Assembly (NCBI GenBank): GCA_965116915.1
Contig: OZ220739.1
Location: forward strand, 630,864 to 694,863
Length of the DNA: 64,000 nucleotides
Direction of reading: 5' to 3'
DNA from: Tepidiformaceae bacterium
GTDB taxonomy: Bacteria; Chloroflexota; Dehalococcoidia; Tepidiformales; Tepidiformaceae
Position 1 is the stretch's first letter. Each line of letters opens with the position of its first letter. Under the pieces are notes generated by a model. That model saw only the letters and a program-made list of their open reading frames with translations, was not told where the DNA came from and searched no databases. The position numbers and the translations under genes are program-made. Below, piece by piece: positions 614-63,036 of the stretch.

Positions 614-3376
614 ATGGCCGCGCTGGCCGGTGGCGCCGCCTCCCGATCCGATGAGAGACCACCAATGAGCGAAGTCGACATCGACCTCCTGATCCGCGGC
701 CGTAGCTCGCGCCGCCGGTGGCTGCTCCTCGCGGCCAGCGCCGTCCTTCTTGCTGTCGCGGTCGCCACCTGGTTCCTGCTCCGGCCTGTAGAGACGGACG
801 TCGTTGCCGAACCGCAGCGCAGCGAGGCGGTGATGGGCCAGCTCAGCACGACCGTGGATCTCTCCGGCTCGGCTGAGGCCGAACGCAGCACCACGATCAG
901 CTTCGGCGTCGCCGGCACCGTCGCTACGGTCGAGGTCGAGAGCGGCGATGCCGTGGAAACGGGCGATGTGTTGGCGACCCTGGACAACGCCGATGCGCAG
1001 CGCCGGGTCGCAACGGCCGAGACGCAGTTGCGGCTCGCGGAGTTGCGGCTTGACGCCCTGCTTGCCGATCCGGCCGCCGCGGAGATCGCGTCCGCACGAC
1101 AGTCGATCGAGTCGGCTGAGACCCAGGTGCTGAACGCCGAGCAGGCGCTCAAGCGGCTTTCCGAGCCGCCCGCCGCGAGCGAGCTGGCGAGCGCCGAGCA
1201 GGCGGTGGCGAGCGCCCTCGGGCAGCTATCGAGTGCCGAGGAGGTGCTGGTGCGGCTCTCGGAGCCGCCGAGCGTGAGCGAGCTGGCGAGCGCCGAGCAG
1301 GTGGTGGCGAGCGCCCTCGGGCAGCTATCGAGCGCCGAGGAGGCGCTGGCGCGGCTCTCGGAGCCGCCGGGCGCGAGCGAGCTGGCGAGCGCCGAGCAGG
1401 CGGTGGCGAACGCCCTCGGGCAGCTATCGAGCGCCGAGGAGGCGCGGGCGGCTCTGATCGCGGGTCCCGGCGAGACGGAGATCGCCGCCGCGCGCACGGA
1501 CGTCACGCAGGCACGGGCACAGCTAAGCGGGGCGATCGACAGGGCCGACGACTCCTGGCACGCCCTCGAAGACGCCTTCGACGAGTTCTGCGAGCAGTAC
1601 GACCACCTCAATGATGTCGCCGAGGGCCTATGCACCGCCCCACTGGCGCTTTCCGACGCACAGGTCCGGGAGCTGCGCGACTTGGCCGAGGATCGGAGCA
1701 GCAACTTCCAGCGTTACGCCAGTGCCGTGATCAACGCCAACGTCGCGTTCGTCGCAGACGACGCGACGAGGCAGTCGGCCGTCACGGCGCTCTCCTCGGC
1801 GGAGCAGCGGCTGGCCGACCTGCTCGCCCCTGCCTCAGACGAGGATCGCTACCAGGCCGAGCAGAGCGTGGAGGGGGCGCGTGCGAACCACGCCTCGGCC
1901 GTGGCGCGGCTCGAGGAGCTGCAAGCAGAGCCGAGCGCGGAGGACGTGCGCCAGGCGGAGCTTGCGGTGGAGGCGGCGCGTGCGAGCCACACGGCAGCCG
2001 TGGCTCGACTCGAGGAGCTGCAGGCAGAACCGAGCGCGGCGGACGTGCGCCAGGCGGAGCTTGCGGTGGAGGCCGCGAGGGCGAACCACGTTGCCGCCGC
2101 CGCGCGGTTCGAGGACCTGCGCGCCCCCGCCGACGAGGGCGAGTTCGAGCAGGCGCGCGCCTCCCTCGAGAGTGCGCGCGCGAGCCTCGCCAGCGCGCAG
2201 GCGCGCTACGACGAGCTGAACGCGGGCCCGACCGCGAACGCGATCGCGCAGCAGGAGGAGAACGTACGGCTCTCCGAGATCTCCCTTGAGGAGGCGCGGG
2301 CCGCCCTCGCCGACTTCACGGTGACGGCGCCGTTCCACGGGATCGTCGAGGCCGTGAACGTGCAGCCGGGCGACCGCGTGGCGGCGGGCCTCGCCGCGCT
2401 TACCCTGAGCACCTCGGACCGGATCCTGATCGCGCTCACCGTGACCGAGGCGGACCTGCTGAGCCTGGAGGTCGGCCAGGCCGGGCTTGCCACCTTCGAC
2501 GCCATCGACGATGTCGAGTACCCGGTCCGGATCGCCTCGATCAGCCGCGTGCCGAACGCCGCGCAGGGCGTCGTCACCTACGAAGTGGAAGCGCGCCTCC
2601 TCGCGGGGCCGGAGATCGCCGAGGTTGCCGCCGAGCTCGCCGCGCTCCGCGGAACCGGAGGCGACCTCGCCAGACTCCTCGCGGGGGCCGGCTTCGGAGC
2701 CGGGGCCGCCGAGGGCTCTGGTGGCGGCGGCGCTAGGGAAGGTGGCGCTGCTGGCGGCGACGCACGAGGCGCGGGTGGCCTCGGTGGCGGTGGGCTGCCG
2801 GCCGGCCTCGATCTGCCCGAGGGCGTCACGATCCAGGAGGTGTTGCAAGCGGTGGCTAACGGCGAGCCGCTGCCCGAGGGCGTGACGCTCCCCGAGGATT
2901 TCGAGATTCCCCCGCAGATCCTCGAACGCTTCCCGAACCTCACGTCGAACGCGCTCGAGCAAGGAGCCGAAACGCAGCAGGGAGCCCTCGCAGCGCGCCC
3001 GCTGCCCGCGCCGGGGATGAGCGCGAGCGTCACGGTCCTGAAGGAACTGCGGGAGCAGGCCGTGCTGGTCCCGGTCTCGGCCGTGCGCCAGCTCGATGGC
3101 GCGTGGTTCGTGACGGTCCCCGGCCCGGCAGTCGACGATGCCGGGGAGGGAATGATCGCCTTCCAGCGCGTCACCGTCGAGGTCGGCGAGTCGGACGGGA
3201 CCAACGTCGAGATCCTGAGCGGGATCGAGGCCGGCGCGGTGCTCCTGATCGGCGCCGACAACTCCGGGAGTGCTTTCAGCGCCACGCAGCAGCGACAGCA
3301 GCCCGGCGGTGGCTTCGGCGGCGGCTTCGGCGGTGGCTTCGGCGGCGGCGGTCCTGGCGGTGGAGGTCGACAGTGA
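614..3376 (+). CDS. HlyD/MacA-family periplasmic adaptor (membrane fusion protein), unusually long at 920 aa
   Basis: N-terminal TM segment (WLLLAASAVLLAVAVATWFLL). Split lipoyl-like beta segments (ISFGVAGTVATVEVESGDAVETGDVLATLD ... VTAPFHGIVEAVNVQPGDRV) are separated by a very long Ala/Glu/Gln coiled coil. Gly-rich C-terminal tail (GGGFGGGFGGGFGGGGPGGGG). The stop overlaps the GTG of the next gene (GTGA at 3373-3376). Confidence 0.8.
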   Translation: MAALAGGAASRSDERPPMSEVDIDLLIRGRSSRRRWLLLAASAVLLAVAVATWFLLRPVETDVVAEPQRSEAVMGQLSTTVDLSGSAEAERSTTISFGVAGTVATVEVESGDAVETGDVLATLDNADAQRRVATAETQLRLAELRLDALLADPAAAEIASARQSIESAETQVLNAEQALKRLSEPPAASELASAEQAVASALGQLSSAEEVLVRLSEPPSVSELASAEQVVASALGQLSSAEEALARLSEPPGASELASAEQAVANALGQLSSAEEARAALIAGPGETEIAAARTDVTQARAQLSGAIDRADDSWHALEDAFDEFCEQYDHLNDVAEGLCTAPLALSDAQVRELRDLAEDRSSNFQRYASAVINANVAFVADDATRQSAVTALSSAEQRLADLLAPASDEDRYQAEQSVEGARANHASAVARLEELQAEPSAEDVRQAELAVEAARASHTAAVARLEELQAEPSAADVRQAELAVEAARANHVAAAARFEDLRAPADEGEFEQARASLESARASLASAQARYDELNAGPTANAIAQQEENVRLSEISLEEARAALADFTVTAPFHGIVEAVNVQPGDRVAAGLAALTLSTSDRILIALTVTEADLLSLEVGQAGLATFDAIDDVEYPVRIASISRVPNAAQGVVTYEVEARLLAGPEIAEVAAELAALRGTGGDLARLLAGAGFGAGAAEGSGGGGAREGGAAGGDARGAGGLGGGGLPAGLDLPEGVTIQEVLQAVANGEPLPEGVTLPEDFEIPPQILERFPNLTSNALEQGAETQQGALAARPLPAPGMSASVTVLKELREQAVLVPVSAVRQLDGAWFVTVPGPAVDDAGEGMIAFQRVTVEVGESDGTNVEILSGIEAGAVLLIGADNSGSAFSATQQRQQPGGGFGGGFGGGFGGGGPGGGGRQ
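1157..1453 (+). repeat. In-frame tandem repeat, 3 x 99 bp (33-aa unit LSEPPxxSELASAEQxVAxALGQLSSAEExxxx)
   Basis: Three near-identical consecutive 99-bp units read directly from the sequence. They lie inside the coiled-coil part of the adaptor ORF and keep the frame. Confidence 0.9.
1841..2137 (+). repeat. Second in-frame tandem repeat, 3 x 99 bp (33-aa unit EDVRQAELAVEAARAxHxAAVARLEELQAEPSA)
   Basis: The two central units are nearly identical and the flanking units are more diverged. Same 33-aa periodicity as the first array, inside the same coiled coil. Confidence 0.85.
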
Positions 3377-5385: not shown

Positions 5386-5451
5386 CCTACGGAGACCATG
5401 CGCGGCCCTCGCTAGCCTCCTCGCATGTCCATGTCCTGGAGCCGCGAGCTC
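5386..5451 (+). repeat. Direct repeat, copy 2 of 2, bracketing the efflux operon
   Basis: See 499-565. Copy 2 begins 53 bp after the permease stop codon. Confidence 0.85.
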
Positions 5452-5722
5452 GTCGCGGCCGACCACGAGGAGCTGGACGAGAGCGACCGCGAGACACTGA
5501 AGAGCGCACGCGGCGCCGCTCGCTGGCATGCGGCTGCCCGAGGGCCACAGCCCGCACGCCGAAGTCGAGGACGGTGGGCGCGTCGTCATCGAGCCCACGG
5601 CTAGAGGCTGAACAACACCTCGAAGGTGGTACTGTCTACCGTCAAGTTAGGCCCGCGTGGCCGCGGTCCCGACCGCGAAGCCCCACCAAGGCCCTCGGTG
5701 GCGAGGAGCGCCGCGAGCTTAT

Positions 5723-5839
5723 CGACTTGCTCCTCGAGGACGCGACCATCGACGGCGAGGGCCGCCTGCCGCTCACGCTCGCCATCCCGGCCGACGGAGA
5801 GTTAGTGCCGATTGCGGAACTGGAGCCGACTACTCGGTC
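5723..5839 (+). repeat. Hybrid att-like junction: module B (5723-5827) plus 12-bp core GACTACTCGGTC (5828-5839), followed by the helicase 3' part
   Basis: Module B aligns to 24304-24405. The core recurs at 13955-13966 (reverse complement), 52694-52705 (reverse complement), 61130-61141 (reverse complement, 1 mismatch) and 24406-24417 (3 mismatches). Confidence 0.75.
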
Positions 5840-6397
5840 TATACGATGCGGCAGGCGTCACGGCGCTCCTGGCGGATAGGCCAGACAGAGCCCGTCCAGG
5901 TCGTCTTCATGGCCTACCGGAACACCCTCCAAGCCGACGCACTGAAGCTCGTGGCGCAGAAGCTCCAGTCCTCGCTCGCCGTCGAAGGCGAGTTGCCAGA
6001 GGGCGGCCTCGCTGCCTACGGCGATGACGGCGACGACCTCATGCTCGCGCTCGCGAGGAAGATCGTCGCGGGCGAGGAGGACGCCGGCTCGGTCGAGTCG
6101 GTCTTCGCCCAGGCCCAGCAGGTCGCGGCGGAGGCCGAGACGCTGCTGGTGGACGAGGAGTGGGCTGCGCCGCAGCCGGTACTCGTCGAGACTGCGGTGG
6201 CCATCGAGAGTGCCGCGGACACCGTGGACTTGGAGCCGCAGCGGTCGCTGTTCTCGTGGGCGGAGTTCCTGACGGACACGCCCGAAGAGCCGCTGCCGTC
6301 TCCGGGTCGCCGACGGCACGAAGCTCCGACGCTCTCGTTGTTCGAGTGGGCGCTCGAACAGGAGCGGGAGGCGGAGCTGGCTAGCGCCGCTGGATAG
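5828..6397 (+). pseudogene. 3' fragment of an SNF2-like helicase (motif VI to stop), detached from any 5' part
   Basis: Translation DYSVYTMRQASRRSWRIGQTEPVQVVFMAYRNTLQADALKLVAQKLQSSLAVEGELPE... is near-identical to the C-terminus of the intact helicase (60581-62830, minus) and to 52145-52705. There are no helicase codons upstream of 5828. Confidence 0.85.
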
Positions 6398-6896
6398 GAT
6401 CAGGAGGGAGGGCGTCGCGTCTGCGGCAGCCCTCCTTTCCGGTCCCACTGTATGCGCCCTCTCGTGCGTTAAGGGGTAGCCGTACCCGATGGCCTGTCGA
6501 CAGCAGCCCGAGCCGCCGAGGCCGCCTGATCTGTGGGCCCAGCTCGGCGAGTGCGCGAACCACGTTGGGATCATCGGGGCGGACTGGTCCGTATTGAAAG
6601 CACGCGGCGGTGCGGGGAACCCGACACCAATTTGAAGGTGGCCCAGTTGGATGTCCCGTCGTCGAGGCGCGATTGGTAGCGGATACTGCGTGAGAGGGTC
6701 GGCCCCCTCGGTGGCGCACTCGTGGACGAGCCGGGAACCCCATGGAGAAGCCACGGAGAGCGGTGAGGCGATTCGCGGCCCCATCGATGCGTGGGAGGCA
6801 GTGATGGGCGTCAAGCTGCTGACGGACGGAGTGCGCGACGAACTGCGTGTCGCTCATCAGGAACAGGTGAAAACCTGGCCTAGGTCTCCCAACTAC

Positions 6897-13874: not shown

Positions 13875-13966
13875 GGAGGGCGCGGTGTGCTGCGACGCGA
13901 GGAGGGGGCAAACTCGCTCCCCAGGTATACCGCAGCGTTCGGTGCGGATTGGAGGACCGAGTAGTC
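13875..13966 (-). repeat. Hybrid att-like junction: helicase codons, core (13955-13966, reverse complement), then module A (13954 down to ~13875)
   Basis: The minus strand reads ...GLDLVEFPTIWWYETDYS then GTCCTCCAATCCGCACCGAACGCTGCGGTATACCTGGGGAGCGAGTTTG. This aligns to module A at 24418-24495. Confidence 0.75.
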
Positions 13967-14160
13967 CGTCTCGTACCACCAGATCGTAGGAACTCCACTA
14001 GGTCGAGTCCCGTCTGCACGAGCCGTGGGTGACGTAGACGAGCACCAGGCGCCCCGCCAGCGGCCTGTAGGCGACGGGGTCGGCCAGCGGCCATCCCTTC
14101 GGATGGAGCCAATCCTCGGCTAGTCGAAGAACGAGGCCAGGGAGAGTCGTCACTCGCAAG
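13955..14160 (-). pseudogene. Internal remnant of an SNF2-like helicase, ending exactly at the core
   Basis: The minus strand reads ...HPKGWPLADPVAYRPLAGRLVLVYVTH-PRLVQTGLDLVEFPTIWWYETDYS. The intact helicase reads YPKERALVDLVAAERLAGRRVLVYATH...(about 55 aa missing)...HPRLVQTGLDLVDFPTIAWYETDYS. One frameshift. Confidence 0.7.
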
Positions 14161-20545: not shown

Positions 20546-21946
20546 ATGATGAAGGCGATTATCTACACCCGCGTCTCGACGGGCGAGGAGGAACCGGACG
20601 GGACATCCCTCGACCGGCAGGAGCGAGCGTGTCTCGAGTACGCGGTCGAGCAGCACTGGGAGATTGTCCGCTGCATCCGGGATAAGGGTAGCGGAGACCT
20701 GCTCGAGCGCGAGGGTCTCGCCGAGCTGCGTGACGCGCTCCGGCAGGGTACGGCCGACGTGGTCGTTGCGCACGCAGTCGATCGCCTGTCGCGAAGCCAG
20801 AGCCACCTGGGCATCCTGTACGACGAGGTTCATTCAGCAGGCGTAGCGCTGGCCTTCGTGACCGAGCGATTCGAAGACACCGCAGTGGGGAGCTTCATCC
20901 TCGCCGCGCGGGCGTTCGTCGCCGAGGTCGGTCGCGAACAGACCGCGGATCGCTCCATGCGCGGGAAGGAAGCGCGCGCCCGCAGCGGCCGTCTCCCCCA
21001 GGGATCCGGCCGCGGCTGCTACGGCTACACCTACAACCCTGACACAGGACGCCGCGAGGTTGAGCCACGCCAGGCCGGCGTTGTCCGCCGGATCTTCGGG
21101 CGCTACGCCGAGGTTCGCAGCTTGTCGACCATCTCCAGTGAGCTGAACGACGAGGGCATCCCGGCGTTCTCCGGGGGCCGCTGGTACCCGATCACGGTAC
21201 GGCGCCTGCTCCTCAACGAGGCCTACATCGGCCGCACGGTGTACCGCCGGACAAAGCGGGTCGGGGTGGGCGCAGGTCAAGCGGGCAGGGGAACTCGCGT
21301 CATGGAGCGCCCCGAGGAAGAACGAATAGAGATTCCCGGGGCTACGCCAGCGATCATCGGCCACGAGCTCTGGGAGCGGGTCCAGAGGATCCTGGAGGAC
21401 CCCGAGCGAACAAGCCGACGTTCCCCTCAAGAGCGGCACTACCCGCTTCGTGGTCGGCTGCGCTGCGGCCTGTGCGACAGCGCGATGGTAGGGCAGACCC
21501 TCACCTCGAAAGGCAAGAGCTACCCGTACTACCGCTGCCGCCATGCGTACACGAAGGACCGGTCGCGCCGCTGCGCAGCGCGGTACATCCCGGCCGACGG
21601 GCTCGAGGACCAGGTCTGGGCGGAGCTGTGCAAGGTGCTCGCCGCGCCCGAGGTCGTCCTGCGCGAGTTGCAGCGGCCTCGCGGTGCCGACGTCCACACT
21701 GAAGAGCGCGACCGTCTCACGTCCGAGGTTGCCTCGCTGGGCGAGGCCAGCGAGCGCCTCCGTCGGACCTGCGTGGCCGTCGCTGGGTGCTTGGACAGCG
21801 GAAGGCAGGAGGAGTTCGAACTCGTGCTCGAGGCAATTCAACTGAGCGTGGCGGCAACTCGCGAGAAGGTCACAGTTGAGGGTGTGGTGCCCTTAGAACC
21901 TTGCAAATCTGCTCAAGAAGGGTTTATCACCACTGAACAAACATAG
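20546..21946 (+). CDS. Large serine recombinase (phage-integrase/transposase type)
   Basis: Catalytic N-terminus AIIYTRVSTGEEE. Resolvase core VVVAHAVDRLSRS. Recombinase domain ITVRRLLLNEAYIGRTVYRR. Zn-ribbon RLRCGLCDSAM...YYRCRH. C-terminal coiled coil. Confidence 0.9.
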   Translation: MMKAIIYTRVSTGEEEPDGTSLDRQERACLEYAVEQHWEIVRCIRDKGSGDLLEREGLAELRDALRQGTADVVVAHAVDRLSRSQSHLGILYDEVHSAGVALAFVTERFEDTAVGSFILAARAFVAEVGREQTADRSMRGKEARARSGRLPQGSGRGCYGYTYNPDTGRREVEPRQAGVVRRIFGRYAEVRSLSTISSELNDEGIPAFSGGRWYPITVRRLLLNEAYIGRTVYRRTKRVGVGAGQAGRGTRVMERPEEERIEIPGATPAIIGHELWERVQRILEDPERTSRRSPQERHYPLRGRLRCGLCDSAMVGQTLTSKGKSYPYYRCRHAYTKDRSRRCAARYIPADGLEDQVWAELCKVLAAPEVVLRELQRPRGADVHTEERDRLTSEVASLGEASERLRRTCVAVAGCLDSGRQEEFELVLEAIQLSVAATREKVTVEGVVPLEPCKSAQEGFITTEQT

Positions 21947-22108: not shown

Positions 22109-22320
22109 CCCGGAACACGCGTCGCCGGAGTGGTTCGGTTGTCGACCTGCTCTAGCACGCGGAGCAGGCGGCGGCCGATCGCGATGACCTAACGACAGCC
22201 CTCGCCAGTGCGGTGAGGGCTGGCCGGTTTGACACCGAGCGGCTGCGCTCCATGGTGAGGGAATACGGATCCTTGGACACGCAAGCGCAAGTGGCGTCGG
22301 CGCGCGGTGCCTCGCACGCG
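22109..22320 (+). pseudogene. 3' fragment of an AbiEi-like antitoxin gene (paralogue of 30240-30818)
   Basis: DNA aligns to 30602-30815 at roughly 85-90% identity by eye (PEWFVVDLLQHAEQAAADRDDLTTALASAVR.GRFDTERLRSM.REYGSLDTQA). Contains in-frame stops. Homology starts abruptly at CCCGGAACAC. Confidence 0.75.
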
Positions 22321-22462
22321 GAGATCCAACTGAGGCTGCGGCTCAGTCCAACTGCTTTCGCGTGAGAAAAAGTCTGGCAGTAAGATGGCCCAGTCCTGCT
22401 TTTGCGACAGAATTTCTAGTGAGCGTGGCGACCTTGCTCACACGAGGGGATCTGGAACACCC

Positions 22463-24129: not shown

Positions 24130-24303
24130 AAATCAGGCGTTCCCGGAACGGTGTTACGGCGGTGTAATCGGGCCGTCATCGCGCCGTACCTCATGGGAGC
24201 CAACAGGAGGGGGCAGGCGCACCGGGTGGACCAGCTGGTTCCGAGAACCACTAACCTGGCGACCTAGATGACGACGCGCTTGCCGCCCTCGGTTCTGTGT
24301 GCA

Positions 24304-24495
24304 CGACTTGCTCCTCGAGGACGCGGCGATCGACGCCGAGAACCGCGTGACGCTCACGTTCATCCCGGCCGACCGAGAGTTAGTGCCGATTGCGGAACTA
24401 GAGCCGAGTTATCGGTCCTCCAATCCGCATCAAACGCTGCGGTATTCCTGGGGAGTGAGTTTGTCCTCTCCCCGCGTCGAAGCACGCCGAACGCG
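24304..24495 (+). repeat. Uninterrupted module B - core - module A site (attP-like or tandem-junction-like)
   Basis: 24304-24405 aligns to 5723-5827 (module B). 24406-24417 is the core variant GAGTTATCGGTC. 24418-24495 aligns to the reverse complement of 13875-13954 (module A). Confidence 0.75.
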
Positions 24496-24742
24496 TCGGG
24501 GCGGGCCGGGCGGGGCGTCCCTTGTACCGGAGGGGGCCACGCGCGGCGCCCTCGACTCCTAGCGCCTGAGCGCCTCGGGTGAGTGCCGGGGTCGCTGGCG
24601 ATCCCGAGTCAGGTGACGCCGCGGCACAGTCATGGGCGGAGGTGAAATCGATTGTGGCGACGACATCATGCCTACGGCAATTCACGTGGCCAATTGGGGA
24701 GGAACAGCCAGGAGCGACACGGCTGCCGAGCAGTTTTGGCTA

Positions 24743-30239: not shown

Positions 30240-30818
30240 ATGTCGACCAACACTATGGTGCTCGAGCCTGGCCACGTCTACCGCACACGTGACCTCTCGC
30301 AATGGACCGCCAACCCCTCGCGGTTGGCCCGCCGGCTCGTGGATCGAGGGCAATTCAAGCCGCTCGCGCAGGGGCTGTTCGTTCACCCCAGGCAGAGCCG
30401 TTTTGGTGCCGTGCCCCCGGCTGATGAAGAAGTCATGCGTGCCTTCCTCGGTGGCCCGTTCGTTCTCACGGGACCGGAGCGTTGGAATGCGCTTGGTCTT
30501 GGCACCTCGGCGGCATTTGCCACTCAATTGGTCTACAACACCAAGCGTTCCGGGGAGTTCACTTTCGGGGGCCGTCGCTTCCTGCTACGGAGGGTGGCGT
30601 TCCCGGAACACCCCTCGCCGGAGTGGTTCGTCGTCGACCTGCTCCAACACGCGGAGCAGGCGGCCGCCGATCGTGACGATCTGACGACAGCTCTCGCCAG
30701 CGCGGTGAGGGATGGCCGGTTCGACACCGAGCGACTGCGCTCCATGGCGAGGGAATACGGATCCCTCGACACGCAGGCGCGAGTGGCGTCGGTTCTCGGC
30801 GCCTCGCAAGCGGCGTAG
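30240..30818 (+). CDS. AbiEi-like antitoxin (partner of the following AbiEii)
   Basis: 192-aa ORF ending 6 bp before the AbiEii-type gene. Its 3' third is duplicated as a pseudogene at 22109-22320. The family call rests mainly on position. Confidence 0.6.
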   Translation: MSTNTMVLEPGHVYRTRDLSQWTANPSRLARRLVDRGQFKPLAQGLFVHPRQSRFGAVPPADEEVMRAFLGGPFVLTGPERWNALGLGTSAAFATQLVYNTKRSGEFTFGGRRFLLRRVAFPEHPSPEWFVVDLLQHAEQAAADRDDLTTALASAVRDGRFDTERLRSMAREYGSLDTQARVASVLGASQAA

Positions 30819-36491: not shown

Positions 36492-36579
36492 TCAGTTACC
36501 TCCGGCAGCCGGCTGTGCCCCCCGTTCTCGTTCCAGCGCCCACTCGAAGAGCTGGACCGTCGGGGCTTCGCCGCGGCAG
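36492..36579 (-). pseudogene. Extreme 3' tail of the SNF2-like helicase (last ~29 codons only)
   Basis: The minus strand reads RCRGEAPTVQLFEWALERERGAQPAAGGN-stop. The intact helicase ends RRDEAPTLSLFEWALEREQEGALAA-stop, and the other copies end EAPTLSLFEWA.... Confidence 0.65.
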
Positions 36580-36659
36580 CGGCCATGAGTGGCAACCGCA
36601 GCTGGGAGCCCACGCGGGTACAGAAGCGTGGGGCTGGCCCTAGACCTCGCTGTCAATAC

Positions 36660-52144: not shown

Positions 52145-52942
52145 TCAACCTGCGCCGGCCAGCACTCCCTCGCGCTCGCGGTCCCGCGCCCACTCGAAGA
52201 GCGACAGCGTGGGAGCCTCACCGCGCCGCCCGCGCGGTGGCTCCTCCGGCTCCCCGGCCATGAACTCCGCCCACGAGAACAGCGACCGTTGCAGCCCCGG
52301 GGCTTCGTCGTCCACGATGGCCGCGACTGTCACCGTGGGCTCCGCCACCGGCGCCGGCTCGGGCGTACGCCAGCCCTCGTCGACCAGCAGCGCCTCGGCC
52401 TCGGCCGCTACCTGCTGGGCCTGAGCGAAGACCGACTCGACCGAGCCGGCGTCCTCCTCGCCCACGACGATCTTCCTGGCGAGGGCGAGCATGAGGTCGT
52501 CGCCGTTGTCCCCGTAGGCGGCGAGACCGTCCTCGGGCAACTCACCCTCGACGGCGAGCGACGACTGCAGCTTCTGCGCCACCAGCTTGAGGGCGTCCGC
52601 CTGCAGGGTGTTCCGGTATGCCATGAAGACGACCTGGACGGGCTCGGTCTGGCCGATGCGCCAGGAGCGCCGTGACGCCTGCCTCATCGTGTAGACCGAG
52701 TAGTCGGTCTTCGCCCATACGATAGTTAGGAACTCCACCAGGTCCACCCCGTTCTGCATCAACGGCGCCCTGCGAACCGCTCTCCAAGCTGCTGCTCCGA
52801 TGTTGCCTGCGTCGACGGCGGCTCCGATCTCACGCGCCTGCCCTTCCGGGCCTTGAACGCAGAGGATCAGCGCTGCCTCGTCTCCGCAGGGGCCGACCCC
52901 CAAAGGTGACGCAGCGCCCCATAGCCGACTCGGACGCTCCAC
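52145..52942 (-). pseudogene. 3' portion of an SNF2-like helicase (third copy), with no 5' half
   Basis: Downstream of the core (52694-52705) the translation DYSVYTMRQASRRSWRIGQTEPVQVVFMAYRNTLQADALKLVAQKLQ... is near-identical to the intact gene. Upstream of the core it is only loosely helicase-like (PLMQNGVDLVEFLTIVWAKT versus PRLVQTGLDLVDFPTIAWYET). The shared motif CTGTATGCGCCCTCTCGTGCGTTAA follows the stop, as it does after 6397. Confidence 0.8.
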
Positions 52943-53142: not shown

Positions 53143-53611
53143 GGCAACTCTCCCCTGACGAGGATAGCGCCCCCGGCAATCCCATCCAGCGCTGGTGTGA
53201 CGTATAGCTCCGTCATCTCGAGTCTCCAGGCAGGTGCTTCGAGCAGGACGACAGCTCCTGCACCGGGGACGCCGGCCGCTCCGCTCCGACACCAGCCCCA
53301 CCGTGGCCGTGTCGCAGCAACACAAGGACTGTCGGCCCCGAGGTGATGGCGGCCGCGCGCCTTCCTGGCCGGCGAACGAGTTGCCATCCTTGAGGCCGTG
53401 GCTCCGCTGGTCCGGTCTCTCGTCTTGCACGCGCTCCCAGCCCCTGGGCGTGGCTCGATTGGAGTCAAGCGGTCCTGGACGGCGCGTTCGGCAGTCGCTG
53501 GCTGGGGGCGGTCTTTGTAGCCGGCGAGATCGACGGTCCCCCGGTAGGCAAGACCCCCCCCGAAATCTTGGAAAACGTCCTATTGAGGAATTTTACTCAG
53601 TAGGGAGTATC

Positions 53612-54877
53612 ATGGTCCTGATGAACGCATTCCAACGCTCAGGCGTTGACACCCTGGCCGAACGTCTCGACGAACCCCCGAGACGGCTGATCGCCGTGTT
53701 CGGACCTCGCCAGACCGGCAAGACCACGATGGTTCGTCAGGCGCTGAGCCGGATTAATCGGCCGAGTCTGTATCTGGCTGTCGATGAACCGGAGTCCCGT
53801 TCTCCCCGCATCAGCGAGAGTGAGCCTTCGGGAGACACCGCGCCAATCGGTCAAGAGCGTGATGGGGCTTGGTTGGCCGGCATCTGGGAGGACGCTCGGC
53901 GGCGGGCGGAGCAGTCCCCCCAGGGCCTCGTGCTCGTGTTCGACGAGATCCAGAAGGTCCCCAACTGGTCCGACACCGTCAAGGGGCTGTGGGACGCCGA
54001 CCGCGCTCAGGGCTGCCCGCTTCATGTTGTCGTCCTCGGTTCCGCGCCGCTTCAGATCCAGTCGGGGTTGAGCGAGAGCCTCGCCGGCCGCTTTGAGTCG
54101 ATACGCGTCACGCACTGGTCGTTCCCTGAGATGTCCACGGCGTTCAACTTCACGCTCGACGAGTTCATCTTCTTCGGCGGCTACCCGGGGGCGGCAAGCC
54201 TCATCGCGGATGAAGAGCGCTGGCGGGACTACATCCTGTACGGGCTGGTTGAGCCGCACCTCGAACGCGACCTCCTCGCCATGACCCGGGTCGACAAGCC
54301 GGCACTGCTCAAGAACCTCTTTGAGCTGGGGGCCTCCTACTCCGGGCAGATCCTCTCGTACACCAAGATGACAGGGCAGCTTCAGGATGCCGGCAACACG
54401 ACGACGCTCGCGCACTACCTCGACCTCCTCTCCACGGCCGGCCTGCTCACGGGGTTGGAGAAGCACTCTGGCAGCGCACAGCGGCGCAGGCGGTCCAGTC
54501 CCAAGCTCAACGTGCTCAACACGGCCCTGATGACCGCTACCTCCGGCTACTCCTTCGCGGAGGCCAGGGCCGACCGCACCTTCTGGGGGAGACTGGTGGA
54601 GAGCACGGTCGGCGCCCACCTGGTCAATACCGCTCGCCCGGGGCTGGATGTCGGTTACTGGCGAGACGGTTCCGACGAGGTCGACTTCGTGCTGGGGCGC
54701 GCGGGCCGCGTGCGCGCGGTCGAGGTCAAGAGTGGCGACCGTCGCCCGAACGACCGTGCCCTGAGGGAGTTCGAGGGCAAGTTTCGGGCGCCGCCATCGC
54801 TCGTGGTTGGTGAGAACGCGATACCGCTCAACGAGTTCCTCTCCGCTCCCGCCTGGGATTGGTTCGAACAGCCATGA
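53612..54877 (+). CDS. AAA ATPase of the AAA_14/DUF4143 type
   Basis: Walker A FGPRQTGKTT, Walker B LVLVFDEIQKVPNW, and a C-terminal DUF4143-like region (VGAHLVN...GYWRDGSDEVDFVL...AVEVKSG). ATG at 53612 preceded by GGGAG. Confidence 0.8.
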   Translation: MVLMNAFQRSGVDTLAERLDEPPRRLIAVFGPRQTGKTTMVRQALSRINRPSLYLAVDEPESRSPRISESEPSGDTAPIGQERDGAWLAGIWEDARRRAEQSPQGLVLVFDEIQKVPNWSDTVKGLWDADRAQGCPLHVVVLGSAPLQIQSGLSESLAGRFESIRVTHWSFPEMSTAFNFTLDEFIFFGGYPGAASLIADEERWRDYILYGLVEPHLERDLLAMTRVDKPALLKNLFELGASYSGQILSYTKMTGQLQDAGNTTTLAHYLDLLSTAGLLTGLEKHSGSAQRRRRSSPKLNVLNTALMTATSGYSFAEARADRTFWGRLVESTVGAHLVNTARPGLDVGYWRDGSDEVDFVLGRAGRVRAVEVKSGDRRPNDRALREFEGKFRAPPSLVVGENAIPLNEFLSAPAWDWFEQP

Positions 54878-57800
54878 CGCACATCGTCGCGCGCACCTGC
54901 ACGGAGCTATCTCCGAACAGGGAGCGTCACGCTCCCGAGCCACAGCCCCAACCGCTGAGCGCCTACCGGGCCGAACCGGCGTATGTCCTGTTGGGCGACC
55001 CAGGTCTGGGAAAGACCACTGCCCTTCAAGGCGAATACGAGGCGATGGGAGAGTCCGCCTGCTTCATCACTGCCCGCAACTTCCTGACCCTCGATCCCGA
55101 CAGCCATCCGGAGTGGCGGGAGAAGACGCTCTTCATTGACGGCCTCGACGAGGTGCGTACGGGCTCCGCCGACGTGCGAACGCCCCTCGACGCCATCCGC
55201 GGCCGCCTGGACAGCCTTCGATGCCAATCCTTCCGGCTGTCCTGCCGGGAAGCCGACTGGTTGGGCGACAACGACCGGCGGGCACTGGAACTGGTGGCTC
55301 CAGGGCGCAGGGTCACGACCCTGCGGCTCGATCCCCTCACCGGCTCCGAAGTGAAGCAGATCCTCGCCGGCCACGAGAAGATCGACGACCCCCAGGCCTT
55401 CATCGACGAAGCGGAGAGCCGCGGCATTGACAGCCTCCTCGCCAATCCGCAGACCCTCAATCTGCTGGCCGATGTGGTGGGCGGGAAGGGAACGTGGCCC
55501 GAGAGCCGCCTCGAGACCTTCGAACTGGCATGTGGTGAAATGGTTAGGGAGCACAACGAGGAGCACTCGTTCGGGACTCAGCCACCGCCCCGGGACGAGC
55601 TGCTGGACGCCGCCGGCTACCTGTGCGCCGCTCAACTCGTGACGGGCGCCGCCGGGTTCTCCCTCGGCCCCGCAGAGGCCTCCGCTGACTGCATTCCCCT
55701 CAACGACTGTGACTACCCTGCTCCGGACGCCCTGCAGCATGCGCTGGCCACACGGCTGTTCAAGGCGGGCGAGGAGAGGCACTTCCTTCCGGTGCACCGC
55801 CATGTGGCGGAGTTCCTGGGTGCGCGTTACCTCGCCCAACGCATCGCCGGAGGCCTGTCGGCGCGACGCGTGCTGGCCCTGATCAGCGGTGCCGACGGGG
55901 TGGTGGTGACCGAGATGCGAGGGCTCTCGGGCTGGCTGGCGGCGCAGTGCGGCGACGCCCGGAGCCTCCTCATCGATCGGGACCCGGTAGGGGCCGCGCT
56001 GTACGGCGACATCCATGGCTTTTCGACCGAGGAGAAGGGCGCCCTCTTGAGGGCGCTTGGCCGGCGCGAGGTGCTCGGTCCCCTCTGGCGGGAGGTCGCC
56101 TCGTTCGAGATGGGAACCACCTTCGGTGCCCTCTCCTCTCCGGACATGGCGCCGGCGATCGACGCCATCCTGTCCGACCCGTCCCGCGATAGCGACCATG
56201 AAGGGCTCGTCCGGTTCTTGCTGATCCTGCTGTTGCAGGGCTCCCCTGACGCCAGGCTGGCTCCACGCCTGCTCTCCGTGGCACGGGACGAGAGCTGGCC
56301 GCCTCGAGTGAACTCCTTCGCCCTCGATGCGTTCCTCCGCGTCGCGAGCGGCGGCGCCGACCACACCGCCGAACTCAGGGGCCTGTTGGATGCGGTTCAC
56401 GACGGCGCTGTCCCGGACCCGGACCACGAGATGAGGGGCGCACTGCTGAGCCACCTCTATCCGGGGGAGGTCTCCGCGTCCAGCGTCTGGGACCACCTGA
56501 TTGAACGCGGCACCAGCCATTTGGTCGGACACTACTGGTCGTTCTGGAACCAGCACCTCCTGGGTCGGTCGTCAGACCGGGACGTGGGTGACCTTCTCGA
56601 CAGTCTCTACCAGCATCGATCCGACGTGGTCCCCGCCCTGGAGTCTCACCACTGGGAGTCCCTTCCCCTGGACCTGCTGGCTCGGGGACTGGAAGCCCAG
56701 GGGGACAGCGTCCCGCTACCGCGCCTCTCCAACTGGCTACGTGCAGCGGCACCGCCGCTCCGGTGGAGCTTCGGCCCCGACAACGAGTCCCAGCGCCGGG
56801 TCCGTGGCTGGCTGGAGCGGCGCCCCGAGATCCAGAAGGCCGTGCTCATGGAGGGGCTGAAGCGGTGCCCCGACGGCGATCGCTACCACCACGAGTCCTA
56901 CGAGGCCTGGGGCGCGCTTCACGGGAGCTCGCTGCCACCTGACTTCGGGCTGTGGTGCCTGAACCGGGCCGTCGACCTTGCGCCTGTGCACGCCAGGGCA
57001 GCGGAGGATCTCCTCTTGAGGGCGTTTCAAGCCTGGAGGGAGAAGCGCGACGACGAGGGCCTGTCCCTTCCTGTCCTGACGGACGGTGTGCGTGGGCATG
57101 CGCCACTGGAGGCGAGGCTGGCGGCCCTCGTCGAGGGCATGGTGTCCTCCGAAGCGGAGGCGGTGCGCGACAGGACTGAGCAGGACGAGGCAAGGGACGA
57201 ACAGGCACGCGAACGCGAGGAGGACATCGCCTACGTACGCTCCCATGCCGAGGCCCTTCGCGAGAACCGAGCCCCCCTGTGGGTCGTCGGCGAACTGGGC
57301 AGGGCGTACTTTCTCTTCCCACGCGGCCCGGCGACGCATGCTTCTCCCGTAGCGGCCCTCTCGGCATTTCTGGGTGACGACCCAACCCTGGTCGAAGCGG
57401 CCTTGGCCGGCCTGCGAGAGACCTTGTGGCGGAACGACGTGCCGGACGCTGACGAGGTCGTCCGGCTCAAGGAGACGTCCATGCGTCACCGCCTTGACTT
57501 CGCGGTTCTCGCCGGCCTGGACATCCTCCATCGGGACGATCCCACCCGGCTCGAGGACATCACCCAGGATCAGATCGAGACGGCTCTGGCGTTCTACTAC
57601 TGCACACCGGCGGGGTTTGCGGCCACCCCGGCGTGGATCGAGGAGTGGACGGAACGCGTTCCCGACGTGGTGGCGGACGTAGCAGCCCGATGCACGCTCT
57701 CCGCAATCCGGCGCGGCGATGGCTACTCTCCGGCCCTTGAGACCATCAGGCGCCTTGGCGGCCACCCATCCCTGAGGCATGCCACCGCTCTCAGGCTCCT

Positions 57801-58962
57801 TGAAGGGGTGCCGGCCGGAGCGGGCCTGAAGGCGCTGGACACCCTTGACAGTCTGCTCTGGGTCGCTCTCGCCGATCCCGACCGGTCGGCCCTTCTCGAC
57901 CTCGTCGGCGCGAAGCTCTCCCTCAAGAGCATGGGGGTGTCTCAGCGAGTGCGCTGGCTGGCTGCAGGCGCTATCGCCGCCCCGGAAGCCTATGCCGCGG
58001 AGTTGAAGACCTTTGTCGGTGAGGGCCAGCGACGCGTCCGGGCACTGGCGGCCTTCTTCGACTCCCGTGACGCCATGGAGCCCCTGCCGTTCCCGAGCGA
58101 GGAGCGGTGCGCCCCGGTCCTTGAGGCCCTCATCTCTCTCATGGGCCGCTCGTTCGCACGAGACGAGCCCCTCGGGTCTGGCGTCGTGACCATCGAGATG
58201 ACGACCGCTGGACACATCAGGCGCCTCATCCAGCAACTGGCCTCGCTCCCCGGAGACGACGCCCTGCAGGCGTTGGACTCACTCGTTGCCGACGCCGGGC
58301 TCGTCCACTGGCTCGATCACCTCGAGCAGGCGCGCGACGACCAGCGAGTCGTTCACCGGGATGCAGCCTACGGCCACCCGGACCTTGGTCAGTTCAACCG
58401 TGCCTTGAAGGAAGGGGAGCCGGCCAACGTCGGTGACCTTGCCGCACTGCTCCACGACCGACTGACCGCGGTGGCGTCAGGCCTTCGTGCCACCAACACG
58501 GATGACTGGCGGCAGTACTGGAATGAAGACCCGCAAGGTCGACCAGAGAAGCCCAAGCATGAGGAGTCCTGCAGGGACGCACTCCTTTCCCAACTGCGCA
58601 GGACACTCCCGGACGGTGTGGATGCACAGCGCGAGGGGCAGCACTCGGGCGACAAGCAGTCCGACATCCGCGTCTCCTTTGAGGGGTTTAGCGTGCCGGT
58701 AGAGATCAAGAGGGACACGCACCCTAAACTCTGGAGCGCCATCAGGAATCAGCTGATCCAGCAGTACACGCGCGACATCGAAACGGGTGGGTACGGCATC
58801 TACCTGGTGTTCTGGTTCGGTGAGGGGAGCGTGCAATCTCCGCCGACCGGAACGCGCCCGACAAGTCCCCAGGAGTTGCAGGAGCGCCTGGAAGCGACGT
58901 TGACGGAGGACGAAGCCCGCAAGATTGAAGTGTTCGTGGTTGACGTCAGCCGGGTGACCTAG
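54874..58962 (+). CDS. STAND/NACHT-like NTPase with helical repeats and a C-terminal PD-(D/E)xK-like domain (1362 aa)
   Basis: ATG 54874 overlaps the upstream TGA (ATGA). Walker A LLGDPGLGKTT and Walker B TLFIDGLDEV. About 900 aa of Leu/Ala-rich helical repeats. The C-terminus has SDIRVSFEGFSVPVEIKRD (about 58660-58720). Confidence 0.8.
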   Translation: MTHIVARTCTELSPNRERHAPEPQPQPLSAYRAEPAYVLLGDPGLGKTTALQGEYEAMGESACFITARNFLTLDPDSHPEWREKTLFIDGLDEVRTGSADVRTPLDAIRGRLDSLRCQSFRLSCREADWLGDNDRRALELVAPGRRVTTLRLDPLTGSEVKQILAGHEKIDDPQAFIDEAESRGIDSLLANPQTLNLLADVVGGKGTWPESRLETFELACGEMVREHNEEHSFGTQPPPRDELLDAAGYLCAAQLVTGAAGFSLGPAEASADCIPLNDCDYPAPDALQHALATRLFKAGEERHFLPVHRHVAEFLGARYLAQRIAGGLSARRVLALISGADGVVVTEMRGLSGWLAAQCGDARSLLIDRDPVGAALYGDIHGFSTEEKGALLRALGRREVLGPLWREVASFEMGTTFGALSSPDMAPAIDAILSDPSRDSDHEGLVRFLLILLLQGSPDARLAPRLLSVARDESWPPRVNSFALDAFLRVASGGADHTAELRGLLDAVHDGAVPDPDHEMRGALLSHLYPGEVSASSVWDHLIERGTSHLVGHYWSFWNQHLLGRSSDRDVGDLLDSLYQHRSDVVPALESHHWESLPLDLLARGLEAQGDSVPLPRLSNWLRAAAPPLRWSFGPDNESQRRVRGWLERRPEIQKAVLMEGLKRCPDGDRYHHESYEAWGALHGSSLPPDFGLWCLNRAVDLAPVHARAAEDLLLRAFQAWREKRDDEGLSLPVLTDGVRGHAPLEARLAALVEGMVSSEAEAVRDRTEQDEARDEQAREREEDIAYVRSHAEALRENRAPLWVVGELGRAYFLFPRGPATHASPVAALSAFLGDDPTLVEAALAGLRETLWRNDVPDADEVVRLKETSMRHRLDFAVLAGLDILHRDDPTRLEDITQDQIETALAFYYCTPAGFAATPAWIEEWTERVPDVVADVAARCTLSAIRRGDGYSPALETIRRLGGHPSLRHATALRLLEGVPAGAGLKALDTLDSLLWVALADPDRSALLDLVGAKLSLKSMGVSQRVRWLAAGAIAAPEAYAAELKTFVGEGQRRVRALAAFFDSRDAMEPLPFPSEERCAPVLEALISLMGRSFARDEPLGSGVVTIEMTTAGHIRRLIQQLASLPGDDALQALDSLVADAGLVHWLDHLEQARDDQRVVHRDAAYGHPDLGQFNRALKEGEPANVGDLAALLHDRLTAVASGLRATNTDDWRQYWNEDPQGRPEKPKHEESCRDALLSQLRRTLPDGVDAQREGQHSGDKQSDIRVSFEGFSVPVEIKRDTHPKLWSAIRNQLIQQYTRDIETGGYGIYLVFWFGEGSVQSPPTGTRPTSPQELQERLEATLTEDEARKIEVFVVDVSRVT

Positions 58963-60580: not shown

Positions 60581-62830
60581 TCAGGCGGCCAGCGCCCCCT
60601 CCTGTTCCCGCTCAAGCGCCCACTCGAAGAGGGAGAGCGTGGGAGCCTCGTCGCGGCGCTTGCGCCTCGGCGGCTCCTCCGGCTCCCCGGCCAGGAACTC
60701 AGCCCACGAGAACAGCGACCGCTGAGGCTCCGAGTCCACGGCCTCCGCGACGGCCTCGGCGGCCACCGTGGCACTGGCACCTACCGGCTCTGGCTCCGGC
60801 GCGTGCCAGCCCTCATCGACCAGCAGTGCCTCGGCCTCCGCCGCAACCTGCTGAGCCTGGGCGAAGACCGACTCCACCGAGCCGGCATCCTCCTCGCCCG
60901 CGACGATCTTCCTCGCCAGCGCAAGCATGAGGTCGTCGCCCTCGTCCCCGTAGGCGGCGAGGCCGTCCTCCGGAAGCTCGCCCTCGACGGCCAGCGAGGA
61001 CTGCAGCTTCTGCGCCACGAGCTTGAGGGCGTCCGCCTGCAGGGTGTTCCGGTAGGCCATGAAGACGACCTGGACGGGCTCGCTCTGGCCGATGCGCCAG
61101 GAGCGCCGCGATGCCTGCCGCATGGTGTAGACGGAGTAGTCCGTCTCGTACCAGGCAATCGTAGGGAAGTCCACGAGGTCGAGGCCTGTCTGCACCAACC
61201 GCGGGTGGCAGACGAGCACGTCGACGCCCTCCTCAACGCGCTTCGCCACCCACGCCTCGCGGCGCTCGGGCGGAACGGCGTCGGCCTTCATCACCGCGAC
61301 GTTGAAGCCGTGGCGGGAGAGGAACTCCTCCATGCGCCCCGTGATGTCGCGCGTGCCCGTGTGGGTGGCGTAGACGAGCACCCGCCGCCCCGCCAGCCGC
61401 TCGGCGGCGACGAGGTCGACGAGCGCCCGCTCCTTCGGGTAGAGCCGCTCCTCGGAGAGGGGCGGCACCTGCACGAGCAGCTCCTCGCTCTCCGGGTCGA
61501 AGACCGTCTCGCCCCGGGTGCAGCCGTCCGGGTAGGCGAGGAGCGTCTGCAGATAGGTGGCCAGCAGGCGCTTCGAGCCCTTCGCGAGAAGGTCCGTCAG
61601 CGCCGCCCTGAGCGTCCGGAAGAGCTCGTCGTAGGCGCTCCGCTGGGAGAAGCCGGTGCCGTCCGCTTCCGTCTCCATGTCGGAGAGGAGCACGCGCTCC
61701 TCGTAGGGCGGGAGCCCGGCAGCGACGTCCGAGAGCCTGAGGAAGACGGAGTTGCCGATGAGGTGGAAGAGGGCGGCGGGGGCGAGCCCCGGGCGCTCGC
61801 GGATGACCTTGCGGTACTTCCGCCTGCGGCTCGTGCGGCCGTCCTCGAGGGACTCGCCGTCGTCGCGCCCGATGGTGTGCTCGACGAAGCCGTAGCGCTC
61901 GATCCAGCGGCTCTCCTCCCCGCGCCCGAACTCACCCCGGATCTCCGGGCTGAACCGGTAGAGGAGGTGGAAGAGCGTCGAGGAGTAGCCCCCCATGAGC
62001 GTGCCGCTCAGGCTGAGGGACTTGCCGCAGGCGTCGGCGAGGATGCCGGCGGCGATGCCCTGGGCGGAACCCCTTCCTTTGTATTCATGGGCCTCGTCCC
62101 CGATCAGCAGGTCGAAGAAGCCCCGCAGGTGGTGCTTCACGTAGTCGCTGAGCGGGTAGCGCTTCGGCCCCGAAGGGTCCGCCTTCCAGAGGGTGGAGCC
62201 GCACTCGTCACAGGTGCGCTTCCTGCGGGCGAGGTCCTTCTGCGTGAGGGGCAGCCCGTCCTTGTCGACGATCGGCTCGAAGCAGTTCGGGCAGCAGGGC
62301 ACCCGGAACGGTTCGAGGGTTTCCTCGTTGCGGACGAGCCTGCCGTCGGCCGTCGCCCAGCGCTCAACCACCGCCGGTAGCCAGCGGTAGGAGAGCTTCG
62401 CGCGTTCCCTGGACATGACCGCGAAGAGCGGCCCTGGCCCGTGCGAGAGGCGCAGCTTCTCGAGGTCGGTGATGGAGGCGACGACGGCGGCGCGGGCGTC
62501 GGGCACCGTCTCCTCCACCTCCCGCTTCCACTTGCGGGTGAGGTGGGGCGGGCAGAGGACGAGGATGCGGCGGAAGCCGGCCAGGTGGGCGGCGGAGGCC
62601 GCGATGAACGTCTTGCCCGTGCCCATCTCCCCGACGACGGTGGTGCCGCGGTGTTCCTCGAGGGAGAGGGCGGCGCCGCGGATGGCGTCGGCCTGCGCCC
62701 CCAGGGGCGTGCGCAGCAGGTGCGGCAGGGGCTTCCCGCAGTCGGAGGGCCGGTAGCGGGGTGGGTAGGACTCCACCACCCGTTCGGCGATGGCGTCGCG
62801 GTAGGTGTCGATGAATTCAGCCAGGTCCAT
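60581..62830 (-). CDS. SNF2-like helicase with a Zn-ribbon insert (750 aa, intact)
   Basis: ATG 62830 preceded by GGAGAAGGAG. Walker A GEMGTGKT, LIGDEAHEYKG, CCPNC...CDEC insert, motif VI QASRRSWRIGQ. The ORF upstream of 62830 is Arg/Gly/Pro-rich and was not called. Confidence 0.88.
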   Translation of the reverse strand: MDLAEFIDTYRDAIAERVVESYPPRYRPSDCGKPLPHLLRTPLGAQADAIRGAALSLEEHRGTTVVGEMGTGKTFIAASAAHLAGFRRILVLCPPHLTRKWKREVEETVPDARAAVVASITDLEKLRLSHGPGPLFAVMSRERAKLSYRWLPAVVERWATADGRLVRNEETLEPFRVPCCPNCFEPIVDKDGLPLTQKDLARRKRTCDECGSTLWKADPSGPKRYPLSDYVKHHLRGFFDLLIGDEAHEYKGRGSAQGIAAGILADACGKSLSLSGTLMGGYSSTLFHLLYRFSPEIRGEFGRGEESRWIERYGFVEHTIGRDDGESLEDGRTSRRRKYRKVIRERPGLAPAALFHLIGNSVFLRLSDVAAGLPPYEERVLLSDMETEADGTGFSQRSAYDELFRTLRAALTDLLAKGSKRLLATYLQTLLAYPDGCTRGETVFDPESEELLVQVPPLSEERLYPKERALVDLVAAERLAGRRVLVYATHTGTRDITGRMEEFLSRHGFNVAVMKADAVPPERREAWVAKRVEEGVDVLVCHPRLVQTGLDLVDFPTIAWYETDYSVYTMRQASRRSWRIGQSEPVQVVFMAYRNTLQADALKLVAQKLQSSLAVEGELPEDGLAAYGDEGDDLMLALARKIVAGEEDAGSVESVFAQAQQVAAEAEALLVDEGWHAPEPEPVGASATVAAEAVAEAVDSEPQRSLFSWAEFLAGEPEEPPRRKRRDEAPTLSLFEWALEREQEGALAA

Positions 62831-63036
62831 GGTGTGTCTCCTTCTCCTGTGAGGGACGACACCACGACCTGGACGCACTGAGCCCCCAGCAGCAGCCGGG
62901 GACAAGTGCGCGCAGGCTGCTGGAGGCGTCCCCGGTGAGGTCGTTGGTGCGAGGTTGCCGGTTGCTTGGCGGACCTCGTATTTCCGGATCGGCGTCGACC
63001 CGTCGGGAGCCGCCAACTGAAGGCGGCTCGAAGAAA

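Follow-up and report, generated by a model that had tools for sequence, protein, structure and literature searches.

What is the origin of a stretch of some 280 bp whose two halves recur separately in the same genome, each of them fused to a piece of a helicase gene? The question is raised by positions 24304-24587 of the window, by which we mean the whole 64,000-nucleotide stretch of DNA analysed here. The window belongs to a 3.08-Mb genome, designated G000, and was compared with relatives that are Tepidiformaceae MAGs (Chloroflexota). The answer we propose is that the stretch is most probably the attP-type site of a family of elements which are inserted into a helicase gene by a large serine recombinase (LSR), and that in G000 it is a fossil whose own integrase has been lost. 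The element family occurs in Tepidiformaceae and in other Dehalococcoidia.

In the following, module B designates the 3' end of the LSR gene and module A the opposite half-site, and a slash marks the junction of two arms. The attP type is written B/A, attB helN/helC, attL helN/A and attR LSR-B/helC, and a short N arm is written dN. The features of the site itself are these:

24299-24562, plus strand: 87-codon ORF, an LSR remnant reading through the site, without a Pfam family
24304-24405, plus strand: B arm, comprising the final 34 codons of an LSR gene truncated at its 5' end, and left half-site of the attP-type junction
24406-24407, plus strand: crossover dinucleotide GA, at which the arms swap exactly in the aligned attP, attB, attL and attR sites of seven genomes
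24408-24587, plus strand: A arm, the right half-site followed by the LSR-frame tail (stop codon 24560-24562) and about 25 nt

Module B as the end of a large serine recombinase gene

The preliminary description of this DNA had recognised the two modules, separately fused to helicase halves, at 5.8 kb and 13.9 kb, and a search of the whole 3.08-Mb genome confirms both. Positions 24304-24417 match 5723-5839 with 86-91% identity (E = 1.9e-33), and positions 24412-24489 match the reverse complement of 13883-13961 with 88% identity (E = 2.6e-22). The homology of module A to its other copies extends to about position 24587, its first 30-48 nt or so being conserved in all of them. The 87-codon ORF reported to run through the site, 24299-24562, does exist, and its status is that of a gene remnant without a family match; the ORFs containing A or B were also considered as ordinary genes, a reading which was rejected.

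The surmise that module B could be the 3' end of an element gene proved correct, and the gene is that of an LSR. In the relative G095, a full-length LSR ORF at L032:11294-12889 (minus strand) with the Resolvase, Recombinase and Zn_ribbon_recom domains ends in ...EERRELLDLLLEDATIDGENRVTLTLAIPTDGELVPIAEPEP / ...GEERRELLDLLLEDATIDGENRVTLTLAIPTDGELVPIAEPEPTTRSIR (stop) and is directly followed by helicase residues 777-962, and the B peptide of the window, DLLLEDAAIDAENRVTLTFIPADRELVPIAELEP, aligns with residues 545-583 of this enzyme. Since the G095 LSR shares that end, module B represents the last 34 LSR codons before the crossover. In all the unrecombined copies, the LSR frame remains open through the GA for a further 23-52 codons (SYRSSNPHQTLRYSW...); the attP-type site sits within the integrase ORF, and insertion swaps out the tail of this ORF. 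A coding test on the A arm gave 42, 44 and 48 variable columns by codon position, with no third-position bias, and on the minus strand the A region has a broken frame and is not coding; the conservation of the first 48 nt or so of A is best read as that of a half-site. Around the site, Rfam and tRNA scans returned no RNA family and no tRNA, and a promoter scan no promoter-like site, while a terminator scan gave a single terminator-like hairpin (24138-24150, minus strand), a number within chance expectation.

Full-length homologues of this LSR, 25 in number and 66-100% identical, are present in 14 of the 28 genomes of the genus, and G000 has none. A tblastn search of G000 detects three C-terminal LSR remnants only, at 5.7 kb, 24.3 kb and 1.626 Mb, and the cognate enzyme is absent from it, the best other LSR being 29.6% identical. 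To judge from the sequence, the site of the window would thus be inert today, in a genome without its cognate enzyme.

The state of the LSR gene depends on what follows it. All five LSRs with at least 78% identity continue straight into the helicase at about residue 776. In a wider comparison of 80 LSR loci from public genomes of Dehalococcoidia, the junction of LSR and helicase at residue 775-778 is found at about 30 loci; these include LSRs of 60% identity, where the helicase fragment is 50-60% identical to the helicase of the window. In most database proteins of this clade of LSRs, the C-terminal end is helicase sequence read out of frame. Modules B and A are contiguous at six loci only (the window, G095, two loci of G112, G119 and G102), and at each of the six the LSR is truncated at its 5' end, with 27-203 residues left at the five that were measured, which is not the picture of a normal conserved gene unconnected with helicases. 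Every full-length LSR is already joined to the helicase or to another target, and none of the full-length LSR genes at the 80 public-genome loci reads into A or an attP-type tail. Truncated LSR genes at the B/A junctions and full-length ones at the recombined junctions fit a one-way reaction between attP and attB: an intact LSR beside its attP, among the many attB copies of such a genome, would recombine. Metagenome, viral and protein collections yielded no excised circle and no full-length LSR with a B/A junction, and scans for the B/A pattern, twice through metagenome contigs and also through viral contigs, gave three chance matches only. One lone full-length LSR with an attP-like joint, P0065 (L163:3091-4760, ENA contig ctg828369), is diverged; its joint reads ...GGAGTCC GA GTTCTCCGTCTTCCAGTCGACAC..., its tail ends in ...RFSWAVDL, and its neighbours are housekeeping-like (BatD, GFO/IDH/MocA, RND efflux).

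The crossover dinucleotide and the helicase target

The alignment of 24 att sites from seven genomes resolves four site types, which are related to one another by the reciprocal exchange of arms at a GA dinucleotide. The attP site reads ..GAGCC GA GTTATCGGTC CTCCAATCC (consensus ...GATTGCGGAACYRGAGCC GA GTTATCGGTC YTCCAATCC...), and the attB site of the unoccupied helicase ..GAGACG GA CTACTCCGTC TACACC (consensus ...TGGTACGAGACG GA CTACTCCGTC TACACSATG...). Clean attL sites, present in G095, G110 and G113, read helicase N-GA-GTTAYCGGTY..., and attR reads B-GA-CTACTC.GTC-helicase. The GA is the only contiguous identity of attP and attB at the crossover, a further shared block, TC.GTC, lying 4 nt downstream. 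A 12-nt core of the site, GAGTTATCGGTC, had been described as differing from the helicase core, GACTACTCGGTC, at three of its twelve positions. The count is right (positions 3, 5 and 6), but the arms change at the first two bases of the 12-mer, the GA, and the remainder of it is the start of the A or of the helC arm.

From position -26 to -5, the B arm mirrors the reverse complement of A at 15 of 22 positions in a comparison of the consensus sequences. Such an imperfect inverted repeat is expected for a serine-integrase site, and it is because of this imperfection that a search of the att sites for inverted repeats with exact seeds found nothing. The 24.4-kb site is near the consensus in both arms. 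The exception within the set is provided by both helN/A scars of G000 (13.9 kb and 1.641 Mb), which read GA-CTACTCGGTC-ctcc and are helicase-like at positions 3, 5 and 6, GA-GTTATCGGTC-ctcc being the reading expected from an attP of the 24.4-kb type that crosses at GA; these aberrant scars either arose from a variant attP or were converted by helicase paralogues.

The target is represented in the window by an intact gene:

60581-63469, minus strand: intact target helicase of 962 codons with ResIII and Helicase_C domains, bearing an unoccupied attB (GA at 61140-61141)

The crossover falls in the codons for TDYSVY, which immediately precede motif VI (RQASRRSWRIGQ). In its module, the helicase gene comes last, after those for a CHC2/Toprim primase, a Rad52-like protein, an SSB and a DUF6094 methyltransferase. 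This module is multi-copy, G000 having two intact helicases plus fragments, and one relative up to 24 matches. In G095, a group II intron (L031:4064-7343) splits the same helicase gene near residue 468; the 616-aa intron ORF carries RVT_1, intron maturase and HNH domains, and the helicase copies of G110 and G113 have gaps at the intron's position. The presence of this intron in the same gene marks the helicase as a repeated target, a hotspot for mobile DNA.

From established LSR biochemistry we infer the following catalytic mechanism. LSR dimers on attP would synapse with dimers on attB, the latter site being the TDYSVY codons of the helicase in the multi-copy primase-Rad52-SSB-methylase-helicase module. 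The enzyme would then cut both duplexes at the central GA, rotate its subunits and religate the ends, thereby producing helN/A (attL) and LSR-B/helC (attR). Sites in direct orientation would lead to a normal insertion, and sites that are inverted on one molecule would lead to the flipping of the intervening DNA. The latter outcome is familiar from phage serine integrases, whose inverted sites flip the DNA between them in engineered inversion.

Ordinary insertions with defence genes in their cargo are found in two relatives, G110 (24 kb) and G113 (20 kb), where helN/A and LSR-B/helC enclose the element on one strand and in direct orientation. The cargo of G110 comprises a PLD-SNF2 protein, an MmeI-like enzyme, an NB-ARC protein, a Replic_Relax protein and a UvrD helicase; that of G113 comprises a type I restriction system and a KAP NTPase. 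ORF-level blastp shows that each element has cargo of its own and that conservation is confined to the LSR and a small upstream ORF; tblastx of the window against the relatives' elements gave compositional noise only. The small ORF, of about 92-103 aa, immediately precedes the LSR in each of the five elements that were inspected (L064:15301-15579 and L032:13091-13402, with homologues in G113, G115 and G119); it has no family in a Pfam search, and is a candidate directionality factor or regulator. An IME carries its own integrase and att sites together with a relaxase or oriT, and no mating-pore genes. Among these features, the integrase and the att sites are present in the element family, and the Replic_Relax protein is found in the G110 element only, with nothing of the kind in the cargo of the window.

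Inverted partners and competing explanations

The other att-related features of the window lie on both sides of the 24.4-kb site:

5694-6498, plus strand: attR-type scar, consisting of a 51-codon LSR remnant, GA at 5828-5829, helicase residues 777-962 and about 100 nt of helicase downstream sequence
13883-14140, minus strand: attL-type scar, consisting of a helicase piece (13967-14140), GA at 13965-13966 and an A arm (13883-13964)
24588-52156, no strand assigned: cargo that separates the attP-type site from the inverted helicase fragment, a lower-GC defence island
52157-52767, minus strand: helicase 3' fragment (residues about 758-961) with an attB-type site (GA at 52704-52705), 82% identical to the intact helicase

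Positions 5828-6385 (plus strand) match the intact helicase of 60581-63469 (minus strand) over its residues 777-962 with 82% identity, and 13967-14140 (minus strand) is a short helicase piece just 5' of residue 777. The hybrid sites differ in strand, B-helC being on the plus and helN-A on the minus strand, so that together they form the product of an inversion and not a simple insertion. The helicase fragment at 52.7 kb, whose N arm is only about 60 nt long, is inverted relative to the 24.4-kb site, with 28 kb of defence genes between the two. We presume this fragment (52157-52767) to be the partner of the site; other candidates are a helicase-tail remnant (36.5 kb) and the intact gene (61.1 kb).

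The same layout, in which an opposite-strand helicase copy with an attB-type site lies downstream of A, recurs in the relatives. The inverted partner is a 3' fragment at 28 kb in the window and at 12.5 and 11.6 kb in G112, and a near-full-length copy at 35 kb in G119. Unrecombined inverted pairs of B/A on the plus strand with helC/dN on the minus strand are thus seen in G000, twice in G112 and, more loosely, in G119, and the recombined inverted form is seen in G000 at 5.8/13.9 kb and at 1.626/1.641 Mb and in a pair of G095. Only inverted pairs survive to view, because direct pairs would lose their cargo by deletion. In the window, the LSR gene has been deleted down to 34 codons, the site stands in inverted orientation to the attB-type sites of the helicase copies (52.7 and 61.1 kb) with the defence island in between, and the scars at 5.8 and 13.9 kb are the recombined version of the same inverted layout. 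Like the choice of the partner copy, the route by which an unrecombined attP would have reached the chromosome is a matter of inference.

Two further joints at GA are seen in G115, where an A arm is fused to non-helicase sequence (X/A) 21 kb upstream of LSR-B/helC (L067 position 3317), and where, on the opposite strand and some 2.3 Mb distant, the N part of the helicase is fused to another sequence that is not A (L069 position 6982). These joints suggest a large chromosomal inversion mediated by the LSR through a pseudo-site. A serine invertase switch of the Hin/Gin/Cin type was also considered for the inverted pairs. The Hin, Gin and Cin systems use a small serine recombinase with a C-terminal HTH, two near-identical inverted sites and an enhancer; the enzyme here is a three-domain LSR of 532 aa and the two sites are unlike, one being of the attP and the other of the attB type, and this candidate was rejected.

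The preliminary description had left the choice between an attP and the junction of tandem elements, and had named the nearby recombinase as the enzyme of the site. The attP type stands. A tandem junction would be produced by accretion, two LSR elements being placed head to tail in one helicase gene and the left LSR being truncated later. Tandem islands driven by a serine recombinase are known from the same class (the ssrA islands of Dehalococcoides, PMC3146451), the content differs on either side of the site, with AbiEi-like genes on the left and the defence island on the right, and a tandem array would result if two occupied helicases in opposite orientation underwent an inversion between attL and attR. 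Such an array predicts helN/A upstream and B/helC downstream, both on the strand of the site, but these flanking direct attL and attR sites are absent: the nearest sites in the window are on the opposite strand (helN/A at 13.9 kb, helN/helC at 52.7 and 61.1 kb), both B/A loci of G112 are paired with an inverted helicase 3' fragment and have no direct attR, and that of G119 is paired with an opposite-strand near-full-length helicase. We therefore regard the tandem junction as very unlikely. As for the enzyme, the ORF 20546-21946 is indeed a three-domain LSR which ends 2.36 kb upstream of the site, at the distance that had been given, and its proximity is what speaks for it as the owner of this attP. 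It is only 27-28% identical to the B-type LSR, its C-terminus reads ...EEFELVLEAIQLSVAATREKVTVEGVVPLEPCKSAQEGFITTEQT and not B, and B is the demonstrable end of a different LSR gene, so that this ownership is exceedingly improbable. On its 3' side, the AbiEi antitoxin gene that is intact at 30240-30818 has its 3' end duplicated over 213 nt (22109-22321, 88%). This succession of an integrase and the 3' end of a target indicates that the 20546 LSR probably serves a different element; the copy is probably its own attR, a second LSR element targeting an abiEi gene.

Is the fossil attP, then, altogether out of use? A locus found in opposite states in two genomes bears on this point (G000:C1:1615000-1665000 and G112:C2:1554000-1613999; L156, L027 and L157). 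Its left flank is collinear over 11 kb at 88-93% identity and includes the same truncated LSR remnant, and its right flank is collinear over about 10 kb at 88%. The att states are opposite, G112 having B/A...helC/dN and G000 having B/helC...A/dN, and the 14.0 kb between the sites in G000 have no ORF in common with the 11.4 kb in G112. As the LSR truncation is the same in both orthologues, it was already present in their common ancestor, and the later recombination was achieved by an enzyme acting in trans, which hints that integrase-less sites stay usable in this way. A plain inversion is insufficient, because the cargo differs between the two loci. A double crossover between two antiparallel units would yield the change of state and the new cargo at once; homologous replacement plus a separate inversion would also give both. 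In the first case, an attP-type site and an inverted attB-type site would bound a cassette position at which LSRs supplied in trans flip or replace the defence cargo, as a natural form of recombinase-mediated cassette exchange. We consider this general scheme unlikely, and distinctly unlikely its application to the 24.4-kb site, which would then be the end of an exchangeable or invertible cassette and a landing pad for trans-supplied LSRs still in evolutionary use. In agreement with a cassette, the G000 locus at 1.63 Mb and its G112 counterpart share flanks and LSR remnant and differ in both state and cargo, as one double crossover would have it; identity drops from 91.6-92.7% in the left flank and B arm to 86.6-87.5% in the interior arms, with the right flank at 89.5%; and the outer arms keep at least a half-site in all units but one. 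Yet the argument comes from one orthologous pair, whose flank divergence of about 10% leaves time for several unrelated events, such as a homologous replacement through the flanks and then an inversion. The step in identity is a modest one and sets coding against non-coding sequence, the cognate LSR is missing from present-day G000, and the outer-arm lengths vary as they do in decay, the N arm of one unit being only about 10 nt long. If the cassette scheme were true, integrase-less sites would be still-active hubs of defence-gene turnover in Dehalococcoidia.

Related systems and the defence island

The kind of system to which the fossil attP belongs is already known, and the site itself is an inert relic in a little-studied phylum; less usual are the repeated occurrence of inverted attP/attB pairs around defence genes and the evidence that such sites were used in trans. 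The phage integrases of phiC31, Bxb1 and TP901-1 act on non-identical attP and attB sites made of imperfect inverted-repeat half-sites, with a 2-bp crossover and a one-way attP x attB reaction. The helicase-site family resembles them in its unlike attP and attB, its 2-bp crossover and the imperfect symmetry of its half-sites, and differs in that its elements are not phages, that attP lies within the integrase ORF and that the directionality factor is only a candidate. The GA crossover recalls TnpX of Tn4451 and TndX of Tn5397, both of which use a GA dinucleotide; these are, unlike the enzymes of the helicase-site family, enzymes of a transposon or conjugative transposon with a looser choice of target.

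The nearest analogues appear to be streptococcal IMEs with serine integrases, IME_Spy2096_SNF2 and IME_SsuT15_SNF2, which reside in the snf2 helicase gene of ICEs of the Tn5252 superfamily (Coluzzi et al. 2017, PMC5357655). In both cases an element with a serine integrase targets and disrupts the helicase gene of another mobile element; also on the side of resemblance, the helicase is here paired with a DUF6094 methylase and one element has a relaxase-like protein. In the present family, as opposed to the streptococcal one, the hosts are Chloroflexota, and the host module carries primase, Rad52 and SSB genes, no conjugation genes being seen in it; the cargo is one of anti-phage defence, att pairs are inverted and chromosomal attP-type relics are frequent. 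Within the same class, the ssrA islands of Dehalococcoides are mobilised by the serine recombinase DsiB (about 540 aa, encoded at the island edge), and decayed islands without an integrase keep their att sites (McMurdie et al. 2011, PMC3146451). Site-specific insertion into a single conserved gene and integrase-less islands with att sites are common to both families. The Dehalococcoides islands target ssrA, have 20-bp direct repeats, form direct tandem arrays and possess a second small recombinase, DsiA, whereas the family described here inserts into a helicase ORF, has 2 bp of identity at the crossover and leaves relics in inverted pairs.

Our observations thus provide a natural and complete set of attP, attB, attL and attR sites, with the crossover pinned to two bases, from an uncharacterised Chloroflexota clade of LSRs, and such att sets are raw material for new integrase tools. 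They also extend to a distant phylum the helicase-gene parasites of another mobile module that were known from streptococcal ICEs, which here ferry anti-phage defence genes.

In the window, the cargo of these genes has a GC content of 0.50-0.67, against 0.69 beyond the island. It includes DUF4160/DUF2442 genes, a PDC-S28 helicase, AbiEi/AbiEii, a TPR-GreAB-C-PIN protein, an AAA_21 ATPase, a 1707-aa double helicase that is DpdF-like and GajB-like, SIR2, MTase_II (a type II methylase) and PDC-M36A. Defence genes are dense across 27007-52000 and 53234-58962, PDC-S01 being among them; the PDC-S28 helicase is possibly frameshifted, and a 1367-aa protein of the island has no family match. The island between 24.6 and 52.1 kb is split into layers of about 12 kb and about 15 kb by the helicase-tail remnant at 36506-36597 (minus strand), a third, short one, with which the 24.4-kb site may originally have been paired. 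Further to the left in the window, a 920-codon HlyD-like ORF (614-3376) contains three tandem 99-nt repeats at each of two places, 1132-1448 and 1852-2148, which correspond to in-frame repeats of 33 residues. A 64-nt direct repeat (86%) is present upstream of this HlyD-like gene, at 502-565, and again at 5388-5451, just past a MacB/FtsX gene, at the edge of the island.
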